Source of the DNA: Patellaria atrata CBS 101060
Taxonomy: Eukaryota
Assembly: GCA_010093705.1 (NCBI GenBank)
Contig: MU006108.1
Location: 328,843 to 382,737, forward strand
Direction of reading: 5' to 3'
DNA: 53,895 nucleotides
A program made the translations under genes and the position numbers. Position 1 is the first letter of the stretch, and every line of letters begins with the position of its first letter. A model generated the notes under the pieces. The model had not been told where the DNA came from, did not search any database, and saw only the letters and a program-made list of their open reading frames with translations. Shown in pieces: positions 1 through 47,602 of the stretch.

Positions 1-10
1 GAGTCTCTGC

Positions 11-1471: not shown

Positions 1472-1725
1472 CTTGTTTAGTTTACTATAATGTTTACTTC
1501 TCTAAGTAATTCGTATTCGTTAGTCCTGATCTCTTTCAAGTACTGGGTCGTCGTTATCGTCGGCGCTAATACTCTCAGGCACCGGATATCTCGTTACTAG
1601 TAGAGCTTAGCTGCTTACAGATCCCCGATCAGTCCGATGATCGTTTATCAGCTAGACTAATATCGTGCTCCGGTTGGAATATTATATCGCCTTTCTAGAG
1701 GCCGTTGAAGGTGAACTTAATCTAG

Positions 1726-1997
1726 TATAACAATGTAGTATAGCTGTAGTAATCGTATTTTAACTATCTCTATTACTAACTACTAAGTGTGGAGATTAAG
1801 TTAAGGAACAATAATATCGTGGGCCGAATGTCCGTATATAATAGTCCCGCCTTACCAAGCCTCGGCCCGACTATCTTCCGTTTAACCAATCAGCGCTTAG
1901 AGATCTTTTCCGCGTCCGACCCGGCAAAGATCTCTTGCAAATAAACTAAACACTCAGCATAGGAAATACGGGATTAGCATCGTGACACGTCGTTATA
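1726..1997 (-). repeat. Family A 5' LTR (272 bp), the least mutated copy
   Basis: Same length and sequence as the LTRs at 17191-17462 and 23653-23924; TG..CA ends RIP-converted to TA..TA; contains CCAAT- and TATA-like motifs. Confidence 0.92.
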
Positions 1998-4900: not shown

Positions 4901-6090
4901 TTAAATATTTATATTATATATAATTTAGATATATATAAGTTATAGCTATATTAAGATATTTATTTTAAGAATATCTTCTTAAAATTTAAATTAATTAAAT
5001 TCGATAGAAAAATTCTATAAATACTACTTTTATTTAATATTTTAAAATAGTTTATAATTTAGATATCTTCTTCTTAAATTCGTCTTTATTAGTAGTTAAT
5101 TAGCTTAATTATTTAGCTAACCTTAATAATAAGACTTAATATAGCTAAAGTAACTTTAAAACTATTAAAATACTTTATTAATCTATTAAAATAATATATT
5201 AAAGCGGTAAAATAAACTATTTATTATCTATATTATATTAGATTTTACTTTATTAAATATAGTAATAAATTATAAGATAATATAATCTTTATAATTATCT
5301 TAAATATATTATTTACTAATAATACTATAAATTATAAAAGTAATTAAAATTATCTATTTTTATTATTTAATAAACTAATTAATTAGAAAGCTTTAAAGTA
5401 AAATATAATTATTATATTAAGTATAAAAATTAAATTATTATTATTCTCTTTAATAGCTAAAGAGTTAATCTCGTAGAAATATCTTTTTAATTATATTAAT
5501 TTTAATCTAAAATAATAAATCTTAATTTTCTATAATAATTATTAAATTATATAGCTTTTTAAGACTAATACGCTTTAACTTATAATTAAACTTTAATATA
5601 TAAATATTTATTAATACTAACTATATTAAGAGGTTTAAAATAATATTATTACTATTAACTAGAAATTTATAATTAAGATATTAATTAATAAATTTATTAA
5701 ATTATTATTTTTATAGAAATATTAATACTTCCTCCTATAATTAAAAATAATAGATATTTAATATTATATTAAATAACTCGATTTAAGAAAAAAGACCTAA
5801 AATAGTTATATAATATAAATAGTTTCTCTTTAAATCTCTTAAGTTAGAAGAGTATATTAGACTAAAAAAATTAGTAATAATAGATAATTAAATATATTTC
5901 TTATTATTTTATATTAACTATTAGTATTATTTCTTTAATATAGCTATTTAATAAATATTAACGCTATTATTTATATATTTTTATATATTTAAATATTTAT
6001 TAAAATAATTATTAAATAATTAAGTAATATCTCTTTATTAATTTATATATTATAAATTTAATAAATATTTAATAAATAAGAGATATAATA
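1998..6090 (+). mobile_element. Ty1/Copia LTR retrotransposon relic (PR-IN-RT-RNaseH order, probable 3' LTR from about 5855; right end uncertain)
   Basis: RIP-degraded motifs in Copia order: protease LLDSEFNIHVYN (LDSGxxxHVCN-like) at about 2252-2287; integrase-like region about 2800-3450; RT YKYNKKEFLIKFKTRLYIKGDL at about 4382-4447 and FYINNIV (YVDD) at about 4781-4801; RNase H about 5310-5750; purine tract then TATTAG at 5855. Confidence 0.8.
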
Positions 6091-6599
6091 TTTAAAGATT
6101 AAAATTAAATAAAAGAAAAAGTTTATACTATTTAAATAGAAATAATCGAGATTATAGAGATAAAAACTAAATTTAAATATATAAAAAATAAAGATAAAAT
6201 TATTAGATATAATAAAAAAAAGAGATTTTAAAGCTTTTAAAAAAGTTAAAAGTAAATTAATATATTAATATATTTAGAATAAAGTTAAATATTTATATAA
6301 TTAATATTAAAGATTATTTATAAAATATTTAAAAACTAAATATAATTATTAGAGTTATAAATTTATATAAAATTAATTCTCTAATTTAAGATAAATTTAG
6401 AGAAGATAAAAATCTATTATTAAATAATAAGAAAGAATTTAAGGCGATAATATTAAAAAAGTTATCTATAAAATATTATTATCTTTTTTATATATTTTTA
6501 AAATATATATTAAACTAATTACCTTTTTATTAAAAGAGAGTTAATTATAATATTATATTAAAATAAGATAATAATTTAATAATAAATTTATTATATAAT
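6091..6599 (+). pseudogene. pol: Gypsy family C pol fragment (pre-RT region), host of A3
   Basis: 6430-6599 resembles but differs from the family A pre-RT region; it is cut at TSD ATAAT and resumes at 34957. Confidence 0.6.
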
Positions 6600-9800: not shown

Positions 9801-9898
9801 GGTTAAAGATTCTATATTAACTATAAAAAGTTAAATAATATTATTAAAAAGAATAAATATCTATTACTCTTAATTAAAAAAATATTAACGCGTCTCTA

Positions 9899-10508
9899 TA
9901 TTACAGCCACAAGTTATAGGAATATATAGATAACGAGTGAGGGGAAAGTAGGAACACTACTCGGGAGAACCACGGATAAAACTAGTAATAAGGGATCACG
10001 TGACTAAAAACTATAGACGTAAAGGATATAAAGGATATAAAAGGGGATCTATATCCACCACGTCTAGGACGTCTAGGTTATAGATATAATAGATATAAAG
10101 GATATAGAAGGAGATCCACGTCTAGAATAGCCACTACGTCTAAAAGGATGTAAGCACCCTAAATTAACTATAGAGGATAGGAATATTTAAGGACGGTCTT
10201 TCCCTTATATATTTAGATTCTTCGTAGTTATTCTTACTATCAATCTTACCTATAGATTTGGATGTTACGGTTTTAAACTTAACTTTATTTATCATATTAT
10301 TTCTATATAGTACGTCTTATCTCATTATAAGCGGTACCCGAAGTTAAGGAGTTAACGAGTTATATCGATAACTTAAAGTGCTTTTATTATACGTATCCTA
10401 TCACTTTACCAAACCTACCTTTATAGTTAACCACGTTAAGTGAGAAGCTAGGCGCGTTTCTAGACTTATCTAGTTCCGTCTTAATAAGTATAGACTCCCG
10501 TTATAATA
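9899..10508 (+). repeat. Family B 5' LTR of B1 (610 bp)
   Basis: Matches 16721-17190 plus 23930-24069 and the reverse complement of 25942-26552 and 32765-33375. Confidence 0.93.
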
Positions 10509-10539
10509 TTATAACTACCACGTAATAGGAAAGCGTATA

Positions 10540-12597
10540 ATAGACCTAGACACGATATCGTTAGCCGTAGCTAATACGAAGACGGATAAAGAATATATCT
10601 AAGCGTTATATAAACGTATTAGCGAACTTGAAAATAAAGGGACGGTCTAAGAACTTAGGGACTAGCTCGAACAACTTATCGTATAGTTGCTCTCACTATA
10701 AAAGCGAACCGCGAAAGTTAAAGAACCCGCACTATATAATGGTAAACGAGACGAGCTAAGAGGATTCTTAACCTAGGTAAGGATCTATTATAAAAGAATA
10801 GGGCTAACGGATAATAGTGAACGTGTACTCGATATATTAACGTACCTTAAAGGAGACGCTCTAGAATAGTTCGAACCTATTACACGAGACTATCTTAAAA
10901 ATAGTGAAGAACACTAGAAAGACGAAATAGTGGAGATCTTTAAGTCGTTTCCAAAGTTCGAAGAAACGCTTAAGAACGTCTTTAGGAAAGTCGATAAATA
11001 ATAAATAGTTAAAAGGAAGCTCTAAGGACTTAGATAGAAGGAGTTAACTTCGAAGTATATAACTATATTCTAGTAGGTAGTATCAATATTAGATTAACTT
11101 AATAAACCACTAATAATCGCCTTCTATTAAGGTTTAAAGGAAGAAGTGAAGGACGAATAGGTTTATTATAAAAGACTAATAACTATATAGGATATAATAA
11201 CCTTAGTAGTTAGAATAGATAATAGGTTATACGAGCGTAGATAGGAAAAGGGAGGATAGAAGAATATTATAGTTAGATATAGAAAGAAGATAATAAGGGC
11301 TATAAATAGATAAGATTAGAGAGACCCGATAGACCTTAACCGACTATAATAAATAAAATAAAAGAAGTCGAAGAAATAACGATAGTTTATCTAAGAAGAA
11401 AGAGAACGTTTTACGAATAGAGTATATCTATAATATAGAGAAGTGGGATATTTTAAGAGAGACTACCCACGGAAGACGTAACTAGCCTCGCGATATAACC
11501 GACGTATATAACTTAGAGTTATATACTTAACGCCACTATCACTAGTCTTATCGCTCGAAGAAGGAGAGATTAAAGAAATGCCGCTACCCTACTAGATAGG
11601 GGTGAGTAGGCTATTAACGCCGTTCCCAATAGTAGGAAACTAGCTAGAGGAGGGAATACTCCGATAACGTTTAGATAACTAATAATATTAGGCGTATAGA
11701 AACGTATATATATATATAGTATTAGAATGCCTAGTATAGAACTAAGGTTAGAAAATTAGAGTATAAATATCTAACGGACCGAGCCTTATATACCGGATTA
11801 TAAAATAATAATAACGGCTCGAACAAGAATTCCAAGACTAGGAGCTAGTTAAACCTAAATCCCACGACGATAGAATTGTCGAAAAACAATAATTAAACCT
11901 TATACCGAGGGTAGAAGACTATTTAGCCTTTCGATAGATATAATATAAAGAGGATAACTACTTATATTATAAATAGTAGAAGATTATAACGAAGTTTAGG
12001 GATCGAGACTCTATCTATATACACTTACTTAAAAGCGAATACTAGGTGGAAGGATGTAAAATCCACGAAGACGAAATAAGAAAAGCTAAAAAGAACTAAG
12101 AACTCGAACCACTAGTAGACGATTATAGAAAGTACGATAGTTTCGACTATATAAATAAGTTTAGGTGTAGGCGACACTATTAAACGCTAATCTATATAGA
12201 ATATATAGTAGCGACGTGGGAAAACTACGAATATAGTACGGAGTACTAATACTATAAAGATTTAGAAGAAGAGTTCTATAAAGAAAAAGTATTCCCGTAG
12301 GAAATAAAAGTACTCTAAAACGATAAAGAAGTACCTAAACACGTTACTAAGTATAATATATAAGACTTCGGATAATACGTAATAAGAGGTATATAGTGTG
12401 ACTATTATATAGTATAGAGGTAGAGAGTAGGAATTAAAAGTAACCCTAGCCACGACGTAGTTATTAAAAGAGAGTGTCGAGAGCTCGAATACGAAGAACA
12501 CCGTAAAGGCCCGTATTACGATAGACACGATAGACTATACTAGGCTAAGTGTATAGAATTCGGTTATCTAGTGTATAGCTATATAAAAAACTACTAA
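10540..12597 (+). pseudogene. gag: Family B gag (686 codons, RIP-disrupted) with a long Cys/His-rich C-terminal extension
   Basis: KVKEPALYNGKRDELRGFLT and LKGDALE*FEP motifs; RIP-degraded CCHC knuckle at about 11424-11466; ends AAAAAAC-TAC-TAA; same 2058-bp length as in B2. Confidence 0.85.
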
Positions 12598-15500
12598 GCC
12601 ACTTAAAATAAAAATAATCGAGAAGTATAGCTTCTAAGTTCTTTAAGATCCTATAAAGTAATAATAAAACGCTTTAGGTAGATATTACTATACACGGTAA
12701 GAGAACGATAGCGCTAGTAGATAGCGGCGCCACTAATTCATTCATTTCACCCCGATAGGTAGAAAAGAAAAGTATACTTTATACGAAACTTAAGAACCTA
12801 GTCCTATTACGACTAGAAAATAGCGAAGGAATAGGATATAGACGAGGTCTAATTAACTTTAGGACTATACTAGTAAAAGTTAACGTATAAGGGAAAGTAA
12901 CTACTTAACGTATTCTTATAATCGATTTAAGAGATATAGATATAATTTTAGAGATAGACTAGTTATAAATAATAAACTTAAATATTAACTAGAAGACGAG
13001 AAGTATCTAGATTAACTAAAATATCTTATAAAAGGATAAAGTTAAGCGAATAAGACGTACTAAATAGATAGACGCTAGTATACCCGTAGAACGTATTTCG
13101 TATTATAAGATAATAAAGATTTATAGAAATAAATCTAAAAGTGTAGAAGTAATATAGTTTAAGAAAGTAGACGTTAAAAAGGTTTCTAAAGAATCTAAGA
13201 TACTTAAAGAATATAGCGAGTTTAAAGATTTATTTAAGAAAGATATAGCGACTATACTTCCAGATCACTAGACGTGAGATCACGAAATAGTGCTAAAAGA
13301 GAGTACGAAACTACGACCCGGTCTAATTTACCCGTTAATAAGGGAATAATATAAAGCACTTAAAGAATATATCTACACTAACTTAGAAAAAGGATATATA
13401 TAATCTAGCGAAAATTTAATAGCTTCACCGATTCTATTTATACTAAAGAAGAATAGTAAGTTAAGATTATATATTAACTATAAATAGTTAAACGACGTTA
13501 TAATTAAGAATAAATATCCACTACCCTTAATCTTAAAAATCTAAGATAGATTATAAAGAGTAAAATAGTTTACGAAATTCGATATCCGAGATAGTTACTA
13601 TCGAATTAGAATAAAAGAAGGCGAAAAATGGAAGATAGTTATAAGAATAAGATTTAAACTATATAAATATATAGTAATACTATTTAGCTTAACTAACGCC
13701 CTAGTAACGTTCTAAGTAATAATTAATTACGCACTAAAAGAATATTTAGACGTATTTATAACTACTTATCTAGATAATATACTAGTATATATAAATGGAA
13801 CACTCGAAAAGTATAGAAAGTATATAAAGAAAGTATTAATGAAACTATAAGAAAAAAGACTTCTAGTACACCTAAATAAATATAAATTCTATATTAAAGA
13901 AACGAAATTCCTAGACTTTATCGTTACCACTAAAAACGTACGAGTAGACTTAAAAAAGATAGCTATAATCTAAGATTAGTCGATACTAAAGAACGTTAAA
14001 AATATATAATCGTTTCTAGGTTTCGCGAACTACTATAAGAAATTTATCTAAAGGTATTTAAAGATAATAACGTCGCTATTAGAATTAATAAAGAAGGAAA
14101 ATACCTTTATTTAGATAAAGAAGGTCTAGAAAATATTCGATAAACTTAAAAAGAAGTTCACTATAACACTTATCTTAGTTATATTTAACCTAGAGAAATC
14201 GATAGTGCTAGAAACTAATATATCTAATTATATATTAAGTGTATATATAAGTTAGCTAGATAAGAAAGGACGACTATATTTAATAATCTTTTATTTATAA
14301 AAGTTTATAGCTATAGAGCTAAACTATAACGTACACGATAAAGAATTATTAGCAATTATCGATATATTCGAATAGTGAAGGTTATACCTTAAAGGATCTA
14401 AGTACACTATAAAAGTTTAATTAAATCACTAAAACCTAATAAACTTCCTCACGATAAAAAAGTTAAATCGAAGATAAGTAAGATAGACGGAAACACTTAT
14501 ATCCTTTAACTTCAAAATATTTTATAGACTAGAAGTCGAAAATAAACTAGCCGATATTATAAGTAGAAGATCTAACTATTTAAAAGGAACGAAATTAGTA
14601 TATAACACGGTACTAAAGAAAGAAAACGACGCGATCACCTATAATTAACTAAAATTAGCTATAATGCTAATAATCGAATCTATAAGAGAATAATAAATTC
14701 GTAATACCTATTAGAAGAATAGTATAATAGAGGAGTTCTAAAGGAATAATAACCTTAAGATAATATAAATAGCTTAAGAAATATAGCTATATAATAGGCT
14801 TATATATATACTAACGATACTACGAAAGACCCTTACTAAAGAAATCCACGAAGCACTAGTATATAATCACTAAGGTATTAATAAAACTTTAGAAAGGATT
14901 CTAAGGAATTACTATTTCCTAGAAATAAGAAGTATAATAAAGTAAGTTATCTTAGAATATAATAACTATATATAGAATAAAAGTGTAAAACACGTATCTT
15001 ATAGACGGATATAATATATTAAACCACTAAAGCGAGTATAGAACTTAATAACGATAGACTTTATTATAGATTTATTAGAATCTAAAGATTTAATAATAGG
15101 AGTAAAGTACGACGCGATATTAGTTATTATAGAACGACTAATAAAGTTCACCTACTTTATACTAGTAAAGACGACGATAATAGCATTATAAGTAGTAGTA
15201 TTAATAATGAAAATAATACTAATAAATCACTAGATACCGAGAGAAATTATCTTAGATAGGGATAAACTATTTAAATTAATGTTTTAGTAGACTCTAGTAT
15301 AAAGTTTAGAGGTAAACTATAAGCTATTAATAAGCTTCCACCTATAAATAGATAGCTAAACCGAGAGAATAAATTAATCTCTAAAGTAATACTTACGTAA
15401 TTATATAAATTACTAGTAGAATAATTAGGTAGAGCTATTACTAATAGTATAATTCGTATATAATAACGCGAAATCCGATATTATAAAGGTTTCACCCTTT

Positions 15501-16235
15501 TATATAAACTATAGTTTTAAACTAGAAGTATATCGTGAGTCGAGAATAGTTTAGAGCATTTTATAGGAAGTAACGTTAAAAGTCGAGTAAATTAAGAAAT
15601 TACACGTATAGCTATCACGAGATATAGCTTTCTAGACGATAAAGGCTATAAAGTATAGTAACTAGTATAGATCGCTAAAACCGATCTTTAAAAGAGGGAA
15701 TAAAGTTTACTTATTATAGAAAAATCTTAAAATAAAATAACCTAATAAGAAACTAGACTATAAGAAAATCGGCCCCTTTAGAATTAAATAGGTTAAAGGA
15801 GAAGTTAATTATAAATTAGAATTACTATAAGGAATAAAGATATATTTAGTTTTCTATATATCACTTCTAAAACTAGTATATACTAACGCTAAACTCTAAA
15901 TAAGACTTATAGAACTTAAGAAGGGAGATATCTATAAGATAAAATAAATCCTAAACCTATAATAAATAAATAATTAGTATAAGTATTTAGTAAAATGGAA
16001 AGGCTATAAATATATAGATAATACGTGGGAACTATTTAAGTATTTAACGAACTATAATTAAAAACTTAAATAGTTTTATCGTTAAAACTAGGGAATTCTA
16101 GACCCTCGAGGGTAAAGAAATCTAGATTAGACTAATTAAAGAGAGATACGATAGCGGAGGAAGAAGAAGCGACTAAGGAAACTCGCTATCTTTTAATTAT
16201 CTATTTTAAAGCCTTAAGTTCCTCGATAAAACTAA
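12590..16235 (+). pseudogene. pol: Family B pol (protease, RT, RNase H, integrase, chromodomain), RIP-disrupted
   Basis: ALVDSGATNSFIS at about 12711-12749; YLDNILV (YLDD) at about 13767; [11 protein letters not shown] at about 14326; chromodomain YLVKWKGY..NTWE at about 15984-16031. Confidence 0.92.
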
Positions 16236-16605
16236 GCTTACGATAAATTATTTCGCCCTCCTTCTAATCGAGAAGTTAAAGCTACTATATTAATCGCTTC
16301 TTACGAGCGAAAGTCTCTAATATCCGGGCGTGTACGTTATTACGGGAAACTCGCGCCTTAACGAGCTTATAACGAAACTTAAATCGCGAAGCGTTTAGCT
16401 TATCCTAATCCTTTTATATCACTATAAGGTCGTATTTTAAACCACGAGCCACACACTTAGAATAGAAACCGGAAGAAAGATCGAGACGGTAAATACGAGA
16501 CTAACGATAATAAGTTGAATAGGGAGTAGGTATTAGTCGACTAGAGGATATAATTTAGGCTATAAGACGCCGATAACGAACTATATAAGATTTAGTTTAA
16601 GGTAT
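16036..16605 (-). pseudogene. RIP-inactivated copy of the antisense Zn2Cys6-type gene in B1
   Basis: 570-bp reverse-complement match to 26668-27237; start ATG changed to ATA, several Cys codons changed to Tyr, and internal stops. Confidence 0.88.
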
Positions 16606-16720
16606 CTTAGAAGAAAGGAAAGAGAGATACGTACGACTTAATAGATAGATAATACGTCTACTTTATATCTAAGTAAAGGGAATAAACTCTTAAGATAAGA
16701 GTTAAAAAAGGGAAGGATAG

Positions 16721-17190
16721 TGTTATAGCTATAAGTTATAGGAATATATAAATAATAAATGAGGGAAAAGTAGAAATATCACTTAAAAGAACTATAGATA
16801 AAACTAGTAATAAGGGATCACGTGACTAGAAACTATAAACGTAAAGGATATAAAGGATATAAGAGAGGATCCACGTTCACTATATTTAGGACGTCTAGGT
16901 TATAGACGTAATAGATATAAAGAATATAGAAGAAGATCCACGTCTAGAATAATCACTATATCTAAAAAAATGTAAGCACCTTAAATTAACTATAAAGAAT
17001 AGGAATATTTAAGGATAGTCTTTCCCTTATATATTTAGATTTTTCGTAGTTATTCTTACTATTAATCTTATCTATAGATTTAAATATTATAGTTTTAAAC
17101 TTAACTTCACTTATTATACTATTTCTATATAGTACGTCTTATCTTATTATAAGCGGTACCTAAAGTTAAGGAGTTAGCGAGTTATATCGA
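16721..17190 (+). repeat. B1 3' LTR, first 470 bp (preceded by a polypurine tract)
   Basis: Starts TGTTATAGC after AAAAAAGGGAAGGATAG; 470 bp plus 140 bp at 23930-24069 gives 610 bp. Confidence 0.92.
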
Positions 17191-17716
17191 TATAACGATA
17201 TATTATAATACTAATCCCGTATTTCCTATACTAAGTGTTTAGTTTATTTGTAAGAGATCTTTACCGGGTTAGACGCGGAAAAGATCTCTAAACGCTAATT
17301 AGTTAAATAGAAGATAGTCAGGCTAAGGCTTAGTAAAGCGGGACTATTATATATAGATATTCGGCCCACGATATTATTATTTCTTAACTTAATCTCTATA
17401 CTTAATAGTTAGTAATAGAGATAGTTAAAATACGATTACTATAGCTATACTATATTATTACACTAGATTAAGTTCACCTTTAACGGCCTCTAGAAAGGCG
17501 ATATAATATTCTAACCGGAGCACGATATTAGTCTAGCTAATAAACGATTATCGGACTAATCGGGAATCTATAAGTAGCTAAGCTCTACTAGTAATAAGAT
17601 ATTCGGTGCCTAAAAGTATTAACGCCGACGATAACGACGACCTAATACTTAAAAGAGATTAGGACTAACGAATACGAATTACTTAGAGAAGTAAATATTA
17701 TAGTAAACTAAATAAG

Positions 17717-22100: not shown

Positions 22101-23574
22101 CCTACTTATTAGATTTAGTAGACTTATAGTCCTAGACGTGGATAATCTTAGAACGTATCTAATACGAGACGTGTATAACGCACTAGTTATAGGATATCTA
22201 GGAACTAGGAAGACGAAAGAACTAATTCGAGCGCGATACTACTAACCCGGATTAGTAGCTAATATAGATAGATATATCCGGAACTATCACACTTATCGTC
22301 GGACGTATACACTAAGAGATAAAACCCCCGGTTTACTAAAATCACTACTAATCGGAGATAGATATTAGTAACACGTCGCCTTCGACTTTAAATCGTTCCC
22401 TAAGGACACGCACGGATTCGAAATAGCGTTTATAGTAGTAGATCGACTAGGAAAGAGAGCGATCTCACTCCCCTATACTAAAGATATCTCGGCTAAGGTA
22501 GCCGTAAAGCTATATTATAAACACGTATAGCGGATATACGGTATACCGGAGATAGCGATATTAGACCGTAGTCTATAGTTTATTTCTATATTTATAGATA
22601 AGCTTTATAAACTAATAAAAGTGAAATAGAAGCTATCTATAGCTTACCACTTATAGACGAACGGAGATACGGAGATTATTAACTAGTATATAGATTTATA
22701 GCTCCGGCCCTTTATAAACCATTATTAGAGTAATTAGTTAGAGTTACTACTTATAGTAGACTTTACCTAGGCCACGTTAGTCTATAAATTAACGGGTATT
22801 TCCCCTTACGAGTTAGAATTCGGTTACTAACTACGAATACATTTCGACTAGTAAGAGCGGATAGATCTCGACGTATATAAGATAGTCCGAGAAAAGATAA
22901 GTAGAGAGGAAGCTTAACTATTCACGAAACACACCCACGACGCCGTTAAATAGGCGAGGAATAACCTAGAAAAGGTATAAGTAATATAGATAAAGTCGGT
23001 TAATAAGTATCGGAGAGAACTAGACTTCGGACTAGGAGACTACGTCTTTATCTTATATAAAGGCTAGATATCGGATAGATCGAGTGTTAAACTAGATTAT
23101 TAGAACGTAGGTCTATATAAGATAATAGAAATAAAGAGGCACTCTTATATAATCGACTTACCCACTAATATAAAGATATCGAACGTATTCTACGTAGATA
23201 GGCTTCGTAAAGCACCGATAAACCCGTTACCCGGATAACGGCTAGAACCATCACCGCCGATCGAAATAGACGGCGAGCCCGAATATAAAGTAGATAAGAT
23301 CCTAGTAAGCCGTATCTCTCGCGGTAAGTTATAGTATAAAGTAAGTTAAATCGGATACGACCCTAATAAGATATAGTATCCGGCTTATAACTTTATCGGA
23401 GCACCGTATAAGCTCGAAGAATTCTATAATTAGAGATTAATCGACGCCGGACCACTAGTCTAACTTAAAGAATAGCTCTAAGCCTTTAGATCTAAGATAG
23501 AAGTAGAGCCGTACGACGATAATAATATAGCTAAAAAGACGGGGCCTATATAGATTTTAAGACGTCGTAAATAG
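19160..23574 (+). pseudogene. pol: Family A pol (protease, RT, RNase H, long linker, integrase, chromodomain)
   Basis: ALIDTRA (LIDTGA) at about 19303-19323; VYINDILIY at about 20689; YEIHDKEILAVV at about 21244; integrase core about 22370-22830; chromodomain EYKVDKILVSR at about 23281-23430. Confidence 0.92.
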
Positions 23575-23929
23575 ATAATAGATCGCGTTATAGAACGCTA
23601 CTAATATTATCACGGAAATTGGGGCCGATTTCTACTATTAAGGGGGGGGTAATATAACGACGTGTCACGATACTAATCCCGTATTTCCTATACTAAGTGT
23701 TTAGTTTATTTATAAGAGATCTTTACCGGGTTAGACACGGAAAAGATCTCTAAGCGCTAATTAGTTAAACGGAAAATAGTCGGGCCGAGGCTTAGTAAGG
23801 CGGGACTATTATATACGAATATTCGGCTTATAATATTATTATTCCTTAACTTAATCTCTATACTTAGTAGTTAATAATAGAGATAGTTAAAATATAATTA
23901 CTATAGCTATACTATATTATTATAATCGA

Positions 23930-24069
23930 TAACTTAAAGTGCCTTTATTATATATATCCTATCACTTTACTAAACCTATCTTTATAGTTAATCACGTTAA
24001 GTGAGAAGTTAAGCGTGTTTCTAGACTTATCTAGTTCCGTCTTAATAAGTATAGACTCCCGTTATAACA
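23930..24069 (+). repeat. B1 3' LTR, last 140 bp
   Basis: Matches 10369-10508 and ends in CCCGTTATAACA. Confidence 0.92.
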
Positions 24070-26605
24070 CTCTAATAAGTAAAGATATTTACGAAACTTA
24101 ATATAAGATAAATATTCTACTAAATTTAGATAAAAAAGTTAGTCGAAAATCTTACTATCTTTTAAATAAAATATAAATTATTTAAGTATAAGGTATTATC
24201 TTTTAAATTATATAATAGTTTAGCCTTATTTTAATAATTTATTAATAAGGCGCTTTTCTAATATTTAAATAACTTCTATATAATATATATTAATAATATA
24301 TTAATTTATTTTAAGTATTTATTAGAGTATTAAATCTATATTATAAAAGTATTAAAAGTATTAATTAAGACCGGTTTATAAGATAATATTAAGAAAAACG
24401 AGTTTTATATAATAAAAATATAATTTCTTAGCTTTATTATTAGTATTAATAGAATAACGATAAATTTAGAAAAGATTAAAATAGTTTAAAACTAATAATT
24501 ATTAATAAATATAAAAGAAATTTTATTATTTAATAAATTTTATAACTTTTATTAAAAGTTTTTAGAGAAATTTAGATAAATTATATAACTATTAATAATA
24601 TAGATATAAAAAGAGATTTAAAAACTATTTAAATAAAAAGAAGAAGAGATATTTAAGAAAATAAAAAAGTTAATTCTATTAGATTAAATATTAATATATT
24701 ATAATCCTCTATTTAAGATAAAAGTTAAGTCTAACTATAATAATAAGATTATTATAGTAATTATATTATAACTTTATAAATATATTTAAAGGCTAGTTAC
24801 CTTCTAGACTAAGACGTTATTAGAGATAAAATTAAGATATAAAATCTATAATAAAGAAATATTAGCTATAATAAAAGCACTAGTCGAGTAAAGAAGTATA
24901 TTAATAAAGTTATAATAAATTTCCTTTACTATAATTATTAATTATAAAGTATTAAAATATTTTACTATAAAATAGTTACTTAATATTAGATAAGCTTAAT
25001 AAAATAAAGTTTTCTTTAATTTTCACTTCTAAATTATATATTAACTTAAAGCTTAAAATATCGTAATAAATACGTTTTCTCGTAAATAAGAAGATCTAAA
25101 AATAGTAAAAAATAAAGATATTATAGTATAAACCTAAATACTAATTAATTTAAATATAATAATAGTATCTTTTTAGCTCTTAATAAAATAATAACTATTA
25201 TTTAAGAAGATATCTTAAAGTAGTAAGAAATATATAATCTTTAAAAAGAGAATAATAGAAAAGTATACTTTAAAGTTAAAGTTTAAGGCCCGGATAGTGA
25301 TAACTAAAATAGCGATAACTAAATCTTTATAAGGGATAAAGAAAATTAAAACTTAAAATTAAAAATCTATAATAATTAAAATCTTAAAAGAAAGAAATAA
25401 TATATTAAAAAAGTGTATTAATTTTAATTTTAAACTAAAGTTTATATCTATTTACTTTATAATTTCTATTATAACTAAAAAAGAAAAGGAAGTTAAATAT
25501 AAGATAAAAAAAAGGAAAAATATATTTATAAATTTAAAGTAATATATTTAAAATAAGTTTAATTGAAAATAAAAGTTACTAATAATATACTTACTAATAA
25601 ATTAAATATTAGAAGTGAACTAGAAATATAATTCTTTATTAATATATTAAAAGTAAATTAAAGTTAAAGAAAAATATTAGAAACTATAAAACGATTTATT
25701 TATTAAATTTAATAGATTTATAGTTTTAGATATAAATAATTTTAGAATATATTTAATATAAGACGTGTATAACGCACTAATTATAGAATATCTAGAAATT
25801 AAGAAGACGAAAAAACTAATTTAAATATAATATTATTAACTCGAATTAGTAGCTAATATAGATAGATATATCCGAAACTATTATATCTATTATCGGACGT
25901 ATATATTAAAAGATAAAATCCTCGATTTACTAAAATTATTATATTATAACGGAAGTTTATACTTATTAAGACGGAACTAGATAAATCTAGAAACACGCCT
26001 AGCTTCTTATTTAACGTGGTTAACTATAAAGGTAGGTTTAGTAAAGTGATAGGATATATATAATAAAAGGCACTTTAAGTTATCGGTATAATTTACTAAC
26101 TTCTTAACTTCGAGTAATACTCTTAAAGAGATAAGACGTACTATATAGAAATAATATAATAAGTGAAGTTAAGTTTAAAACCGTAATATCCAAATCTATA
26201 GGTAAGATTAATAGTAAGAATAACTACGAAGAATCTAAATACATAAGAGAAAGACCGTCCTTAAATATTCCTATCCTCTATAGTCAATTTGGGGTGCTTA
26301 CACCCTTTTGGACGTGGTAGCCGTTCTAGACGTGGATCTCCTTCTACGTCCTTCACGTCCACTACGTCCATAACCTGGACGTCCTAGACGCGGTGGACGT
26401 GGATCCCCTCTCGCGTCCTTTGCGTCCATTGCGTCCACAGTTTCTAGTCACGTGACCCCTTGTTACTGGTTTCATCCGTGGTTCTCCCGAGTGGTGTTCC
26501 TACTTTCCCCTCACTCGTTGTCTGCATGTTCCTATAACTTGTGGCCGTAACACTATCCTCCCCCTTCTCAACTCTTGTCCCAAGAGTTTATTCCTTTTGC
26601 TTGGG

Positions 26606-26667
26606 TATAAAGTAGACGTGTTGCCCACCTATCAAGTCGTACGCACCTCCTTTTCCTTTCTTCTAAG
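26606..26667 (+). promoter_or_regulatory. Putative core promoter of the antisense gene
   Basis: TATAAA at 26606-26611, pyrimidine-rich tract at about 26646-26664, and AAG-ATG start context (A at -3). Confidence 0.5.
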
Positions 26668-27237
26668 ATGCCTCGAACTGAATCTCGCGCAGTTCGTCGT
26701 CGGCGTCTCGCAGCCCAAATTGTGTCCTCCGGTCGACTAATGCCCACTCCCTGTTCAACCTGTCGCCGTCAGTCTCGCACTTGCCGTCTCGATCTCTCTT
26801 CCGGCTTCTGTTCTAAGTGTGTGGCTCGTGGTTCAAAATGCGACCTTATGGTGACACAAAAGGACTGGGACAAGCTGAACGCTTCACGATCTGAGCTTCG
26901 TCGCAAGCTCGCTGAGGCGCGAGTTTCCCGTGACAACGCACATGCCCGGATGTTGGAGGCTTTCGCTCGTGAGGAGCGATTAATGCAGCAGCTCCAACTT
27001 CTCGATCAGAAGGAGGGCGAAATGATTCGTCGTGAGCTTAGTTCCATCGAGGAGCTTGAGGCTTTGGAGCGAGCAGCCGAAGGGCAGCGAGCTTCCTCGG
27101 TCGCTCCTTCTTCCTCCGCTGTCGTGTCTCCTTCTGGTTGGTCTGGTTTGGATTTCTCCGCCCTCGAGGGTCTGGAATTCCCTGGTTTTGGCGATGAAAC
27201 TGTTCAAGTTTCTGATCGCAATTCGTCAAATGTTTGA
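26668..27237 (+). CDS. Intact 189-aa Zn(II)2Cys6-like zinc-cluster, coiled-coil protein, antisense within element B2
   Basis: C29-x2-C-x6-C-x8-C-x2-C-x6-C58 spacing; basic N-terminus (RAVRRRR); helical E/R/L/A-rich middle; acidic-aromatic tail; GC-balanced with CpA/TpG retained. Confidence 0.85.
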   Translation: MPRTESRAVRRRRLAAQIVSSGRLMPTPCSTCRRQSRTCRLDLSSGFCSKCVARGSKCDLMVTQKDWDKLNASRSELRRKLAEARVSRDNAHARMLEAFAREERLMQQLQLLDQKEGEMIRRELSSIEELEALERAAEGQRASSVAPSSSAVVSPSGWSGLDFSALEGLEFPGFGDETVQVSDRNSSNV

Positions 27238-30200
27238 GTGGTTCCCACGTGTTGTCTACGTGTTCGTAGCCTTTCCATTTTACTAAATACTTGTACTGAC
27301 CGTCGACTCGTTATAGGTCTAAGATCCGTTCTACCTCGTAGATATCTTCTTCCTCGAGTTCTATAGGTCGTGTTTGGAGTTTAGCGTTAGCATGTGCTGG
27401 TTCTAGGAGTGATATATGAAAAACTGGGTGTATCTTCATTCCTTATGGTAATTCTAACTCGTAATTGACTTTTCCTTTGACCTATTTAATTTTAAAAGGG
27501 CCGATTTTCTTGTGGTCTAGTTTCTTGTTAGGTCGTTTTGTTTTGAGGTTTTTCTATAACAAGTAAACTTTGTCCCCCCTTTTAAAGGTCGGTTCTAGCG
27601 ATCTATGCTAATTGCTGTACTTTGCAGCCCTTGTCGTCTGGAAAGCTATATCTCGTGATAGTTATGCGTGCAATTCTTTGATTTGCCCGACTTTTAACGC
27701 TACTTCTTATAAGATACTCTAAACTGTTCTTGGCTCACGATATACCTCTAGTTCGAAACTATAGTTCGTATAGAAGGGTGAAACCTTCGTAGTATCGGAT
27801 TTCGCGCTATTATATGCGAATTATACTATTGATAGTAGCTCTACCTAGTTATTCTACTAGTAATTCATATAGTTGCGTAAGTATTGCTCTAGAGATTAGT
27901 TTATTCTTTCAGTCTAGCCATCCGTTTATAGGTGAAAGCTCGTTAATAGCTTATAGTTTACCCCTAAACTCTATACTAGAGTCTACTAAAACGCTAATTT
28001 AAATAGTTTATCTCTATCTAAGATAATCTCTCTTAGTATCTAGTGATTTGCTAGCACTATTTTTATCACTAATACTACTACTTATAATGCTATTATCGTT
28101 ATCTTTACTAGTATAAAGTAGGTGAACTTTATTAATCGCTCCACGATAACTAATATCGTGTTATACTCTACTTCTATTACTGGATCTTTAGATCCTAGTA
28201 GACCTATAATAAAGTCCATTATTATTAAGTCTTAAGCTCGCTTTAGTGGCTTAATATATTATATTTATCTATAGGATATATGTTTTACACTCTTATTCCG
28301 TGCGTAGTTATTACACTTTAAGATAACTTACTTCACTATACTTCTTACTTTTAGGAAATAGTAATTCCTTAGGATTCTTTCTAAGGTTTTATTAATACCC
28401 TAGTAACTATACGTTAGTGCTTTATAGATCTCTTTAGTAAGGGTCTTTCGTAGTATCGTTAGTATATATATAAGTCTATCGTATAGCTATATTTCTTAAG
28501 CTATTTATATTACCCTAAAGTCGTTATTCTTTCTAAACTCCTCTATTATACTATTCTTCTAATAGATATCACGAATTTATTATTCTCTCGTGGATTCGAT
28601 TATTAGTATTATAGCTAATTTTAGCTAATTATAGGTGATCGCGTTATTTTCTTTCTTTAGTACTATATTATATATTAGTTTCGTTTCTTCTAGGTAGTCG
28701 AATCTTCTACTTATAGTATTAGCTAGTTTATTTTCGACTTTTAGTCTATAAAATATTTTGAAGTTAAAGGATACGAGTGTTTCCGCCCACCTTACTTATC
28801 TTCGATTTAACTTCTTTATCGTGAGGAAGTTTATTAGGTTTTAGTGATCTAACTAAACTTTTATAGTGTACTTAGGTCCTTTAAGGTATAACTTTCACTA
28901 TTCGAATACGTCGATAATTGCTAATAATTCCTTATCGTGTATATCGTAGTTTAGCTTTACGGCCGTGAACTTTCGCGAATAAAAGGCTATTAGATATAAT
29001 CGTCCTTTCTCGTCTAGCTAACTTATATATACACCTAGTGTATAATTAGATACGTTAGTCTTTAGCACTATCGATTTCTCTAGGTTAAATATAATTAAGA
29101 TAGGTGCTATAGTGAATTTCTTCTTAAGTTTATTAAATACTTTCTATATCTTCTCTATCTAAACGAAGGTATTTTCCTTCTTTATTAACTCTAATAGCGG
29201 CGTTATTACCCTCGAGTACCCCTAGATAAACTTTCTATAGTAGTTCGCGAAATCTAAAAACGATTATATATCTTTTACGTTTTTTAGTATTAGCTAATCT
29301 TGGATTACGGTTATCTTTTTTAAGTCTACTCGTATACCTTTAATGGTAACGATAAAGCCTAGGAATTCCGTTTCTTTAATATAGAATTTACACTTATTTA
29401 GGTGTATTAGAAGTCTCTTTTCCCGTAGTTTCGTTAATATTTTCTTTATATACTCCCTATACTCTTCGAATATTCCGTTTATATATACTAGTATATTATC
29501 TAGATAAATAGTTATAAATACGTCTAAATACTCTCTTAGTATATAATTAATCACTATTTAGAACGTTACTAGGGCGTTAATTAAGCCGAATAGTATCACT
29601 ATATATTCGTATAGTCTAAACCTCGTTCTTATAACTATCTTCTATTCTTCGCCTTTTTTTATTCTAATTCGATAGTAACCGTCTCGGATATCGAATTTCG
29701 TAAACTATTTTACTCCTTATAACCTATCCTAGATTTCTAAGATTAAGGGTAATAGATATCTATTCTTAATTATAGTGTCGTTTAGCTATCTATAGTTAAT
29801 ATATAATCTTAGCTAGCTATTCTTCTTTAATATAAATAAAATCGGTGAAGCTATTAGACTTTCGCTAGGTCGTATATATTCCTTTTCTAGGTTAGTATAA
29901 ATATATTCTTTAAGTGCTTTATATTATTCTCTTATTAACGGGTAAATTAGATTAGGTCGTAATTTTATACCCTTCTTTAGCACTATTTTATAATCCTATA
30001 TCTAGTAATTTAGAAGTATAGTCGCTATATTTTCTTTAAATAAATCTTTAAACTCGCTATACTTTTCAGGTATTTTAGGTTCTTCGGAAACCTTTTTAGC
30101 GTTTACTTTTCTAAGCTATACTACTCTTACGCTCTTAGGTTTATTTCTATAGATCTTTATTATCTTATAGTGCGAAATACGTTCTATAGATATACTAGCG

Positions 30201-32733: not shown

Positions 32734-34684
32734 TATACGCTTTCCTACTATATGGTAGTTATAATGTTATAACGGGAGTCTATACTTATTAAGACGGAAC
32801 TAGATAAGTCTAGAAACGCGCCTAGCTTCTCACTTAACGTGGTTAACTATAAAGGTAGGTTTAGTAAAGTGATAGAATACGTATAATAAAAGGCACTTTA
32901 AGTTATCGGTATAACTTACTAACTCCTTAACTTCGGGTAATACTCTTAAAGAGATAAGACGTACTATACGGAAATAGTGTAATAAGTGAAGTTAAGTTTA
33001 AAACCGTAACATCCAAATCTATAGGTAAGATTAATAGTAAGAATAACTACGAAGAATCTAAATATATAAGGGAAAGACCGTCCTTAAATATTCCTATCCT
33101 TTATAGTTAATTTAGGGTGCTTACACTCTTTTAGACGTGGTGGCCGTTCTAGATATAGATCTTCTTTTACGTCCTTCACGTCCATTATATCTATAACCTA
33201 GACGTCCTAGACGCGGTGGACGTGGATCCCCTCTCGCGTCCTTTACGTCCATTACGTCCATAGTTTCTAGTCACGTGACCCCTTATTACTAGTTTTATCT
33301 ATGGTTCTCCCGAGTGGTGTTCCTACTTTCCCCTTACTCATTATCTATATATTCCTATAACTTATGGCCGTAATATATTACTAATTAGAGATAAATATTA
33401 ATAATATATTATCTTCGACTTTAAATTATTCCTTAAGAATATATATAGATTCGAAATAACGTTTATAGTAGTAGATCGATTAGAAAAAAGAGCGATCTTA
33501 CTTCCTTATATTAAAAATATCTCGATTAAGATAACTATAAAGCTATATTATAAATATATATAATAAATATATAATATATTAAAGATAACGATATTAGATT
33601 ATAATCTATAGTTTATTTCTATATTTATAGATAAACTTTATAAATTAATAAAAGTGAAATAGAAACTATCTATAACTTACTATTTATAAATAAATAAAGA
33701 TATAAAGATTATTAATTAGTATATAAATTTATAGCTTTAACTCTTTATAAACTATTATTAGAATAATTAATTAAAGCTATTATCTATAATAGACTTTATT
33801 TAAATTATATTAATTTATAAATTAATAGGTATTTTTCTTTATAAGTTAGAATTTAGTTATTAACTATAAATATATTTTAATTAATAAGAGCGGATAGATC
33901 TCGATATATATAAGATAGTCCGAGAAAAGATAAATAAAGAAGAAGCTTAACTATTTACGAAATATATCTATAATACTATTAAATAGGCGAGGAATAACCT
34001 AGAAAAGATATAAATAATATAGATAAAGTCGATTAATAAGTATCGAAGAAAACTAGATTTCGAATTAAAAGACTACGTCTTTATCTTATATAAAGACTAG
34101 ATATTAAATAAGTTAAGTATTAAACTAGATTATTAAAATATAGATTTATATAAAATAATAGAAATAAAGAGGTACTCTTATATAATTAACTTATCTATTA
34201 ATATAAAAATATCGAATATATTCTATATAAATAGACTTTATAAAGCACTAATAGACCTATTACTTAGATAATAATTAGAATTATCACCGTTAATCGAAAT
34301 AGATAACGAGTCTAAATATAAAGTAGATAAGATCTTAGTAAACTATATCTCTCGCGGTAAATTATAGTATAAAGTAAGTTAGATTAAATATAACCCTAAT
34401 AAGATATAATATTTAACTTATAACTTTATCGAAGTATTATATAAACTTAAAGAATTTTATAATTAGAGATTAACTAATATTAAACTATTAATCCGACTTA
34501 AAGAATAACTCTAAGCCTTTAAATTTAAGATAAAAGTAGAGCCGTATAACGATAATAATATAATTAAAAAGAAGGGGTCTATATAAATTTTAAGATATTA
34601 TAAATAGATAATAGATTATATTATAAAATACTATTAATATTACTATAGAAATTAAGGCCGATTTTTACTATTAAAAAGAGGTAA

Positions 34685-45600: not shown

Positions 45601-47602
45601 TACTTATTTACTCTATAATTCTCATTATTAAAGAAGAAAAGAAGGTTAAATTTTAAAAGAAAAAAAGAAAAAATATATCTATAAATTTAAAGTAATATAT
45701 TTAAAATAAGCTTAATCGAAATTAGAAACTATTAATAATATATTTACTAATAAACTAAATCTTAGAAGTAAATAGAAAGTATAACTTTTTATTAATATAT
45801 TAAAAATAAATTAAAATTAAAAAGAGATATTAAAAATTATAGAATAATTTATTTATTAAATTTAGTAGATTTATAGTTTTAAATATAAATAATCTTAAAA
45901 TATATTTAATATAAGATATATATAATACGCTAATTATAGAATATCTAGAAATAAAGAAAATAAAAAAGCTAATTTAAATATAATATTATTAACTTAATTT
46001 AATAATTAATATAAAAAGATATATTTAAAACTATTATATTTATTATTAAATATATATATTAAAAGATAAAACTTTTAATTTACTAAAATTATTATTAATA
46101 AGAGATAAATATTAATAATATATCTCTTTTAACTTTAAATTATTTCTTAAAGATATATATAATTTTAAAATAATATTTATAATAATAAATTAATTAAAAA
46201 AGAAAGTAATCTTATTTTCTTATATTAAAAATATTTTAGTTAAAATAATTATAAAACTATATTATAAATATATATAATAAATATATAATATATTAAAAAC
46301 GATAATATTAGATTATAATCTATAATTTATATTTATATTTATAGATAAACTTTATAAACTAATAAAAGTGAAATAAAAACTATTTATAATTTATTATTTA
46401 TAAATAAATAGAGAAATAAAGATTATTAATTAATATATAAATTTATAACTTTAACTTTTTATAAATTATTATTAAAGTTATTAATTAAAATTATTATCTA
46501 TAATAAATTTTATATAGATTATACTAGTTTATAAATTAATAAATATATCGTTTTATAAGTTAAAATTTAATTATTAACTATAAATATACTTTAATTAATA
46601 AGAGTAAATAAATCTAAATAAATATAAAACTATTTAAGAAAAGATAAATAGAAAGAAAGTTTAACTATTTATAAAATAAACTTATAATATTATTTAATAA
46701 ATAAAAAATAATCTAATAAAAATATAAATAATATAAACTAAATTAGTTAATAAATATTAATAAGAACTAGATTTTAGCTTAAAAGATTATATATTTATTT
46801 TATAAAAGAGCTAAATATTAGATAAATTAAATATTAAGTTTATTTATTAAAACGCGAGTTTATATAAGATAATTAGTATAAAAAGATATTTTTATATAAT
46901 TAACTTATCTAGTAATATAAAGATATTAAATATTTTCTATATTAATAAACTAAAAAAGACTCTAATAAATTTATTACTTAAATAATCGTTAAAACTATTA
47001 TTATTAATCGAAATTAATAAAGAATTTAAATATAAAGTAGATAAAATATTAATTAACTATATCTTTTATAATAAATTATAGTATAAAATAAGCTAAATTA
47101 ACTATAATTTAAATAAGATATAATATTTAATTTAAACTTTATTAGAATATTATATAAGCTTAAAAAATTTTATAACTAAAGATTAATTAATATTAAACTA
47201 TTAATTTAATTTAAAGAATAATTAAAAGCTTTTCACTTCGATAAAAAAGTATAACTATATAATAATAATAATATTATAAAGAAGAAAGGCCTAATATAAA
47301 TATTTAAATATTATAAATAGATAATAATAAAATATTATAAAATATTATTAACGTTATAATAAAAATTAGGGCTAATTTCTACTATTAAGAAAGAAGATAA
47401 TATAATAATTTATTATAATATTAGTTTTATTCTTATATTTAGTGAGTTTATATAAGGTCTTAACCGATTTAAATATAAAAAAGATCTTATAGCTATAATT
47501 AATTAAATAAAAAATAGTTAAATTAAAACTTAATAAAATAAAATTATTATAAATAAATATTTAATTTATAATATAATTATTTCTTAACTTAATCTCTATA
47601 TT
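42617..47602 (+). mobile_element. Subfamily A' (gag end, pol, truncated 3' LTR at 47401-47602), right-arm copy including the spacer
   Basis: Starts abruptly in the 3' end of gag; PR-RT-RH-IN-chromodomain colinear with A2. Confidence 0.82.

Follow-up and report, generated by a model that had tools for sequence, protein, structure and literature searches.

A putative zinc-cluster-like accessory protein encoded antisense to gag-pol beside the 3' long terminal repeat of an ascomycete chromovirus

Here, we report an accessory gene carried by a Ty3/Gypsy retrotransposon, hereafter element A, in the genome of Patellaria atrata CBS 101060. The window, i.e., the whole stretch of DNA that was analysed, comprises 53,895 nucleotides of contig MU006108.1 (GenBank assembly GCA_010093705.1, positions 328,843 to 382,737), and all coordinates without a contig name are those of the window. 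The open reading frame (ORF) at 26668-27237 runs opposite to gag-pol beside the 3' long terminal repeat (LTR) of element A, and its product combines a basic N-terminal helix, a six-cysteine module that resembles the Zn2Cys6 domains of fungal regulators, and a long helix predicted to dimerise. The best explanation overall, to which we give about an even chance, is an accessory gene of an ascomycete chromovirus lineage that encodes a nuclear zinc-cluster DNA-binding regulator of the element.

The antisense ORF, its relatives and its carrier element

Element A is a chromovirus with its sense on the − strand, where its reverse transcriptase (RT) match and its chromodomain are found; together with an LTR pair, an RT and a pol whose C-terminal end carries a chromodomain are what characterises chromoviruses. 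The LTR repeat (25936-26550 versus 32759-33373) is 615 bp long and 91.5% identical in the self-comparison of the window. Frame reading takes pol through a basic tail downstream of the chromodomain to a stop codon at 27038-27040. The parts of element A that fix its orientation, degraded in part by repeat-induced point mutation (RIP), are as follows.

25936..26552, − strand: 3' LTR of element A (direct repeat with 32759-33373; TG..CA end read from the sequence)
27038..27310, − strand: pol chromodomain and basic C-terminal tail (PF00385 Chromo at 27041-27310, E 2.9e-13)
29297..29557, − strand: RT fragment of RIP-degraded pol (PF00078 RVT_1, E 6.1e-10)
32759..33373, − strand: 5' LTR of element A (direct repeat)

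Since RVT_1 and Chromo sit on the − strand, the ORF, an intact ATG frame on the + strand, is antisense and beside the 3' LTR, from which its start is about 115 nt away. An initial annotation of this DNA had described an intact 189-aa ORF opposite gag-pol, which agrees with our reading. It had also placed the ORF between pol and the 3' LTR; the position beside the LTR and the antisense orientation stand, but the ORF is not wholly between the two, because the pol frame runs to its stop at 27038-27040 and the last 200 nt of the ORF (27038-27237) thus overlap the pol tail. The part of the ORF past the pol stop measures about 370 nt and includes the whole zinc module and most of the long helix. In all six frames of the window, only two frames reach at least 100 aa from stop to stop, and the accessory ORF is one of them. 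The TATA box and the CT tract that had been noted upstream were both found again. The features of the gene are listed below with their basis, where AF2 is the AlphaFold2 model, pLDDT its predicted local distance difference test score, and NLS a nuclear localisation signal.

26606..26611, + strand: TATAAA, 57 nt upstream of the ATG, putative antisense promoter
26646..26664, + strand: CT-rich tract directly before the ATG (sequence reading)
26668..27237, + strand: antisense accessory ORF, 189 aa, ATG start, stop codon included (six-frame reading; homologues)
26686..26730, + strand: basic N-terminal helix, residues 7-21 (RRxxLxxxI), NLS-like (AF2 pLDDT 89-97; family consensus)
26752..26841, + strand: six-Cys Zn2Cys6-like module, residues 29-58 (Cys pattern; superposition)
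26857..27099, + strand: long helix, predicted dimerisation coiled coil, residues 64-144 (AF2; dimer prediction)
27100..27234, + strand: Ser-rich, acidic-aromatic tail (SPxxW..D..GET), residues 145-189, overlapping the pol tail (pLDDT about 59; partly conserved)

The cysteine spacing of the window protein, read directly from the translation, is C29-x2-C32-x6-C39-x8-C48-x2-C51-x6-C58, the same CX2CX6CX8CX2CX6C as initially annotated. This pattern belongs to a large family. A HMMER profile search of 1.84 billion representatives returned 961 clusters (defined at 50% identity) at E ≤ 1e-3, 307 at ≤ 1e-10 and 14 at ≤ 1e-30. Lengths among the best 150 of the 961 clusters span 79-388 aa, nearly all falling within 79-270 aa and one being of 388 aa; these 150 and seven other family proteins make up a set of 157 with a median length of 183 aa. 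The six-Cys pattern is present in 134 of the 157, with the exact x2,x6,x8,x2,x6 spacing in 84, and the 23 proteins without the pattern have N-terminal truncations, longer loops or Cys>Tyr changes. In a 61-member alignment C32 and C58 are invariant and each of the remaining four cysteines is at least 90% conserved. The initial annotation had let its case depend on whether the cysteines are conserved in diverged relatives, and by these counts they are.

The consensus of the 61-member alignment reads, in order, as a basic helix RRxxLxxxI; the module MPxPCSxC...SGRCxEC...KCDLxVTxxxW; a long helical stretch that leads to RELxSIEELExLE; and a tail SPxxW..D..GET. The invariant motif EMxRRELxSIEELExLE corresponds to residues 118-134 within the long helix. 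The N-terminal basic motif was found in 55 of the 93 members that have at least 18 residues upstream of the Cys module, in line with the basic, NLS-like N-terminus first proposed. The Met three residues ahead of the first Cys (MPxPC) is present in 58% of the members with the common spacing, and many gene models begin there (window residues 22-27); judged from these sequences, the family may use two start codons to give forms with and without the basic N-terminal helix.

A word-indexed protein search recovered the window's own gene model (P0001) together with six paralogues, i.e., seven gene models named as Patellaria atrata CBS 101060 proteins, and five proteins from other sources at 43-55% identity. 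The UniRef label "Zn(2)-C6 fungal-type..." is attached to five of the six Patellaria paralogues. A protein search with the zinc region of one member (P0010) gave, among two candidates, only the query itself. Among 20 family representatives looked up by name, Watsoniomyces obsoletus was the only species, the others being metagenome or Logan proteins. In all, named members come from Patellaria, Watsoniomyces obsoletus, Pyricularia oryzae and Paraphaeosphaeria minitans, and the ESM Atlas holds three neighbouring clusters of 62-140 members each, described as "commonest Ascomycota" and with no common Pfam family; our taxonomic range rests on these four named genera and that ESM Atlas line. In five database gene models (P0002, P0024, P0026, P0093 and P0140) Tyr replaces one of the six Cys. 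Because TGY>TAY is a RIP-type change, some annotated genes of the family are probably dead copies.

The genomic context of the gene was available in three element families, i.e., the two copies in the window (A and B1) and two metagenome contigs, L001 and L002, which are the two loci confirmed from at least 595 pattern matches. Viral contigs gave 248 pattern matches and no relative (alignment A1). The homologues in L001 and L002 share about 27-42% protein identity with the window protein, a divergence at which synonymous sites are saturated. Within the window the ORF is present in two of two element copies, the second being part of element B1, as follows.

9897..17192, + strand (gag-pol): element B1, second copy of element A's family, 85.9% identical to A in opposite orientation
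16036..16605, − strand: RIP-killed accessory ORF copy in B1 (tblastn E 3e-52; same length as the A copy)

In L002, a 423-bp LTR pair (5351-5773 and 11625-12047, 86% identical) flanks − strand remnants of gag and pol that match the frames of copy A (pol E 1e-54), and the homologue occupies 6001-6471 on the + strand between pol and the 3' LTR. The L001 homologue begins at 2005. An LTR-like stretch of about 570 nt with short tandem repeats precedes it at a distance of about 110 nt, and farther out Retrotrans_gag and zf-CCHC (zinc knuckle) are encoded on the opposite strand, an order expected if identical LTRs had collapsed in assembly or if elements stood in tandem. As L001, L002 and the window copies agree, the layout is common to three unrelated element families, and the same position in three unrelated elements argues for a long vertical descent within elements. 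The claim that the gene is part of the retrotransposon family and not a host locus is borne out by both window copies and by L001 and L002, all with the same place and orientation. The ORF can be classed as an additional ORF (aORF) of the aORF-3R type, i.e., an antisense ORF that an element carries in the region from pol to the 3' LTR, that occurs in most copies of a family and that is conserved like the other proteins of the element. Please note that the independent genomic contexts behind this reading number only three, which counts against it.

The coding strand is indicated by L001, in which the homologue is interrupted by a 49-nt GT..CTGAC..AG intron (L001 2201-2249) in the ORF's own sense. 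Removal of the intron restores the frame and the conserved Trp and gives KCDLVVSEAEWKKLL; with two alternative GT/AG pairs the frame also stays open, yet the family pattern is not recovered. An intron in the sense of the ORF is not spliced from the genomic RNA of the element and can therefore survive retrotransposition, and we consider this intron, as read from the sequence, the best single argument for a transcript on the accessory-gene strand. The L001 intron sits at the codon of the conserved Trp, and another family protein (P0171) has an unalignable insertion at the same protein point, possibly an intron that was left unspliced there.

It could be argued that the ORF is no gene, i.e., that it is a chance frame or mirrors the constraint under which the pol tail, or non-coding signals by the 3' LTR, evolve. 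Several observations lean to that side and speak against a real gene: the final 200 nt overlap the pol tail, the − frames of the window also resemble L001 (50.1 and 42.7 bits) and L002 (30.0 bits), the − strand of L001 has a 198-aa open frame across the same DNA, and the intron rests on one metagenome contig. However, about 370 nt with the zinc module and most of the helix are past the pol stop, the six Cys are kept in 134 of the 157 relatives, and the + frame scores above the − frames each time (65.5 and 60.5 bits to L001; 57.4 bits to L002). The similarity of L001 to the − frames of the window switches frame at the 49-nt intron, so the 198-aa frame is homologous over part of its length only and can be explained away. 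The no-gene explanation is thus close to refuted, with a probability that we put at a few in a hundred at most, and we are highly confident that the ORF is a real, element-encoded gene.

A divergent zinc-cluster-like module and a predicted antiparallel dimer

The AF2 model, computed with the 61-sequence alignment, has a mean pLDDT of 86.8 and consists of a helix (residues 7-21), a small module (26-60), one single helix (64-144) at a pLDDT of about 98 and a disordered tail at about 59. The probable coiled coil of the initial annotation is therefore reproduced as this one helix. The acidic-aromatic tail that it had listed is retained in part: the motif SPxxW..D..GET is partly conserved, whereas the model confidence there is low.

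When the model was compared with solved structures, Foldseek ranks 1-15 were all Zn2Cys6 DNA-binding domains (PUT3, Pho7, Leu3, PPR1, GAL4 and HAP1; E 0.3-3), and VIA-align superposed residues 26-60 of the predicted model on HAP1, Leu3, LAC9 and GAL4 with a root mean square deviation of 1.2-1.6 Å over 32-34 residues (Z 2.1-3.1). A PDB profile search placed PUT3 at E 0.058, where profile positions 54-122 align with chain residues 1-66, i.e., module and helix. The best matches of that profile search, Beclin-1 and BST2, were dismissed as coiled-coil noise. Zn2Cys6 domains follow a spacing range of CX2CX6CX5-12CX2CX6-8C, and GAL4-type domains usually have a Lys just before Cys3 and a Pro before Cys4. 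The cysteine spacing of the window protein falls within this range. Lys or Arg make up 46-61% at the two positions after Cys2 and 53-69% around Cys4-Cys6.

A number of results weigh against a zinc cluster. Pfam Zn_clus (PF00172) is the top match of the window protein, yet its 14.1 bits (E 0.051) are below the cut-off of 21, and E < 0.01 was reached in only 7 of the 61 members (best 4.2e-4). The position before Cys3 is Lys or Arg in only 27% of members, such that the usual Lys is not conserved, and the positions before Cys4 are Ser (88%), Gly (51%) and Arg (46%), the usual Pro being absent across the family. The structural match statistics given above are weak because the module is tiny, and AlphaFold may reproduce a zinc-cluster fold merely from the Cys pattern. 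The initial annotation had already called the domain divergent for its missing Lys and Pro, and both the sub-threshold score and the family-wide absence of the Pro bear this out; the checks that it had proposed, a Zn_clus profile search and a structure prediction, gave a divided answer, with Zn_clus as top match and a superposable predicted fold on one side and a score below the cut-off on the other. Given loops with abundant Lys and Arg on the one hand and non-conserved characteristic Lys and Pro on the other, we describe the module as divergent and zinc-cluster-like and do not assign it to the Pfam family. The predicted model makes a zinc-cluster fold likely, at about three chances in four; zinc binding by the module we infer only.

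Dimerisation was addressed by a homodimer prediction of residues 1-150, which scored 0.54 against 0.01 for the best control. The mark used for this score is passed by 21 of 30 solved homodimers and by none of 23 single chains (among eukaryotes, 17 of 29 and 0 of 30). Between the runs, at least 93% of contacts are shared, with a partner pLDDT of 80 or more. Residue i contacts a residue near 186-i, which makes the coiled coil of the model antiparallel, and in the predicted dimer each zinc module contacts the invariant segment 119-133 (RRELxSIEELExLE) of its partner. This tells against a regulator of the familiar kind, since an antiparallel arrangement would hold the two zinc modules apart at either end of the rod, a geometry that no solved Zn2Cys6 dimer has; the dimer prediction also ran without the 61-sequence family alignment. 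The GAL4-like activator layout put forward initially thus holds for the predicted order of a zinc module followed by a dimerising helix and fails for the dimer itself, which is predicted to be antiparallel and not of the parallel GAL4/PUT3 layout.

Compared with the factors GAL4, PUT3, PPR1, HAP1 and Leu3, the accessory protein has a six-Cys spacing within range, a predicted fold that superposes and a dimerising helix that follows the module. Restriction to fungi is a further common trait, with Ascomycota as the commonest phylum among accessory members with a record. In contrast to those factors, the accessory protein scores below the Pfam cut-off, is without the conserved Lys and Pro, is short (about 190 aa) and lacks a middle homology or regulatory domain, has a helix of about 80 residues in a dimer predicted as antiparallel together with an extra conserved N-terminal helix, and is encoded by a mobile element.

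Candidate targets in the LTRs, alternative roles and the RIP-free ORF

If the protein binds DNA, the repeated motifs in the LTRs of the element are the obvious candidate targets. The array in the 3' LTR is the following.

26310..26436, no strand assigned: GGACGY cluster of the 3' LTR, 10 motifs with two triplets at 9-bp spacing among them, candidate enhancer or binding array

The 5' LTR has a cluster of seven GGACGY copies at 33169-33259, and in both LTRs the motifs stand partly in triplets at 9-bp spacing. In the window as a whole GGACGY occurs 24 times versus 6.6 expected, none of 100 shuffles reaches 24, and 17 of the 24 are in the two LTRs. From its sequence the GGACGY cluster looks like an enhancer-type array and a candidate target. 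In the LTR-like stretch of L001 (L001 1690-1830), a 10-bp unit containing GCGATCAC forms about four tandem repeats, with a near-perfect inverted repeat of the unit; this array appears to parallel the design of the window LTR array, and the motif differs.

In our proposal, antisense transcription would start in the spacer of about 115 nt between the 3' LTR and the ATG, which holds the TATAAA at 26606-26611, or in the LTR itself. The product of about 190 aa would comprise the basic N-terminal helix, the divergent Zn2Cys6-type module, the dimerising helix of about 80 residues and the loosely conserved acidic-aromatic tail. It would enter the nucleus, where its zinc modules may bind DNA, and it could then regulate the transcription or the chromatin state of its own element, with activation or repression alike possible. 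That the protein is a DNA-binding regulator of the element we consider slightly less probable than not.

The strongest competitor is that the gene is a real element gene whose product is a non-transcriptional adaptor, which bridges nucleic-acid segments (cDNA ends or the two LTRs), binds genomic RNA, Gag or the chromodomain integrase, or serves copy-number control or suppression of silencing. The predicted antiparallel dimer would suit such a role, as it holds the zinc modules far apart with each docked on the RRELxSIEELExLE of the partner, and no solved Zn2Cys6 regulator in the structural match lists is built this way; likewise, the family does not conserve the residues with which GAL4-type domains recognise CGG. 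In its available passages, PMC7264820 counts nuclear import and antisense-RNA regulation among the possibilities for antisense aORFs. On the other hand, the structural neighbours of the zinc module are all DNA-binding domains and the loops of the module are rich in Lys and Arg. An adaptor is in our estimate rather unlikely, at somewhat less than one chance in three.

A further competitor concerns the origin of the ORF and is tied to its exemption from RIP. The ORF is the only stretch of element A without a RIP signature: with window 26650-27240 compared with the flanks 26150-26650 and 27240-28100, TpA/ApT is 0.23 and (CpA+TpG)/(ApC+GpT) is 1.23 in the ORF, versus about 1.5 and about 0.2 in pol, and TpA per 150 nt rises from 0-2 in the ORF to 16 just past its stop codon. 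The B1 copy differs from the A copy at 126 of 570 nt, of which 119 are C>T or G>A in B1, and many stops break its frame; RIP-type changes in the ORF thus number 7 in copy A and 119 in B1. A RIP-killed copy of the same length at 16036-16605 in B1 had been claimed initially and is confirmed by these numbers. Among sequencing runs, the stretch was located in two of one study, both probably of DNA, and in none of RNA; their contigs cover the whole stretch at high, repeat-like depth, and other copies in these contigs differ from the window at a dozen ORF positions, e.g., 26848, so the window copy is not pristine. Selection on the window copy, gene conversion or the lack of a close pairing partner could each have left the RIP-free patch.

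The ORF could accordingly derive from the N-terminal part of a host Zn2Cys6 factor (DNA-binding domain and dimerisation helix) that the element captured, and act as a dominant-negative competitor of that factor; or copies such as the one in element A could have been domesticated by the host and for this reason have escaped RIP. Its architecture is like that of the first ~150 residues of a fungal zinc-cluster factor, with PUT3 aligning over module and helix at E 0.058, and within element A it alone is without the RIP signature, with the sharp change at the stop codon. However, almost every one of the best 150 of the 961 relatives is a short protein that stands alone (79-270 aa, with a single one of 388 aa) and not a long host factor, the Fungal_trans middle domain occurs in none of the 61 members scanned, the same position in three unrelated elements argues for long vertical descent in elements, and the RIP-free patch may be neutral, through gene conversion or for want of a close pairing partner. 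Capture or domestication of this kind is improbable, at little more than one chance in ten.

Returning to a regulator encoded by the element, a wider version can be formulated, in which a whole lineage of ascomycete chromoviruses would be "complex" retrotransposons whose own sequence-specific zinc-cluster factor, made from an antisense intron-bearing transcript, reads short tandem motifs in their own LTRs (GGACGY at 9 bp here; the different 10-bp repeat in L001) to set the transcription or chromatin state, and in which one gene copy in the Patellaria genome was kept intact by selection while RIP destroyed the rest, as a start of domestication. We offer this version as a speculation with perhaps one chance in four.

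Genomic setting, known antisense genes and significance

The 53.9-kb window is almost wholly AT-rich, RIP-like DNA, with long stretches at a GC of 7-16%. One further feature of element A is a candidate polypurine tract (PPT).

26556..26569, − strand: candidate polypurine tract GAGAAGGGGGAGGA, just inside the 3' LTR (putative PPT role from its position)

More fragments that resemble the LTR of element A (78-93% identical) are located in AT-rich DNA at 23919-24075, 52120-53025, 22346-22465 and 46090-46214, and their sequence suggests solo LTRs or older nested copies of element A's family. The left end of the window (1-2000) has a normal GC of 0.45-0.48 and contains the only other long open frame, at 1050-1490 (146 aa stop to stop). 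At 83-172 there is a short tblastn match to the zinc-knuckle region of L001, and another retroelement remnant may lie at this end.

Plant and fungal LTR retrotransposons with an extra antisense ORF beside the 3' LTR have been on record for decades. The statement in the initial annotation that canonical Ty3/Gypsy elements encode only gag and pol is overstated, since antisense extra ORFs are in print for plants and for Boty, according to the available passages of PMC7264820 and PMC8365987. The fungal case is brtn of the Boty-like elements of Botrytis cinerea (Zhao et al. 2011, Virology 417:248), which the citing passages of PMC8365987 and PMC7264820 describe as an antisense gene between pol and the 3' LTR. 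The passage in PMC8365987 gives brtn as missing from the latest B05.10 annotation, a passage in PMC4227169 mentions a Boty-like element with "brtn-106", and one in PMC5987419 a Monilinia transcript that matches truncated Pol and BRTN; because this transcript matches both, it fits an overlap of BRTN with the end of pol. In PMC7264820, brtn is classed among the antisense aORFs, and the passages available there state that a clear similarity to other proteins has not been described for any antisense aORF.

Boty and element A are alike, as far as those passages go, in being ascomycete chromodomain-bearing Gypsy elements that carry, past pol and before the 3' LTR, an additional gene running against gag-pol. 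They differ in that the citing passages assign BRTN no domain or function, and our comparison is by position, not by sequence. A named BRTN is absent among the named matches of our accessory-family searches, and "brtn" has no occurrence in the searched supplements of PMC8365987. The parts of the fungal LTR survey PMC3248453 that were available do not mention antisense genes. We found no literature link between a zinc cluster and a fungal LTR antisense gene in a search that left subscription journals mostly outside. The plant aORF-3R genes (Grande gene23, RIRE2, Retand ORF4 and PvRetro13 ORF2), in the available text of PMC7264820, share the position between pol and the 3' LTR, the antisense orientation, the presence in most family copies and a suspected nuclear or regulatory role. 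They differ by belonging to plant non-chromovirus lineages and by having either no reported similarity or other domains (SMC, transposase 28), and that text reports none of them as a zinc-cluster protein. The antisense position itself is already known from brtn. The initial interpretation of the gene is partly supported: the gene and its likeness to the zinc-cluster domain stand, and the trans-activator or anti-silencing factor that had been put forward is a candidate role.

In layout only, the closest working analogy to the accessory gene is HBZ of human T-cell leukaemia virus type 1 (HTLV-1). HBZ is a dimerising antisense basic leucine zipper (bZIP) factor encoded on the minus strand beside the 3' LTR, with an antisense promoter and a spliced form. 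It differs in being a bZIP and not a zinc-cluster protein, in coming from a vertebrate retrovirus and in having no homology to the accessory protein.

With the present analysis, an antisense gene family gets a concrete, testable identity, i.e., predicted zinc-cluster, dimeric and probably DNA-binding. The family is very widespread in Ascomycota, with its 961 clusters at 50% identity. Should BRTN prove homologous, our result would assign a domain to a known gene and greatly extend its range. If the protein acts on the LTR of its own element, fungal retrotransposons would, like complex retroviruses, possess a transcription regulator of their own, and hundreds of fungal gene models now listed as "hypothetical" or "Zn(2)-C6 domain" proteins would be transposon genes and not host regulators.

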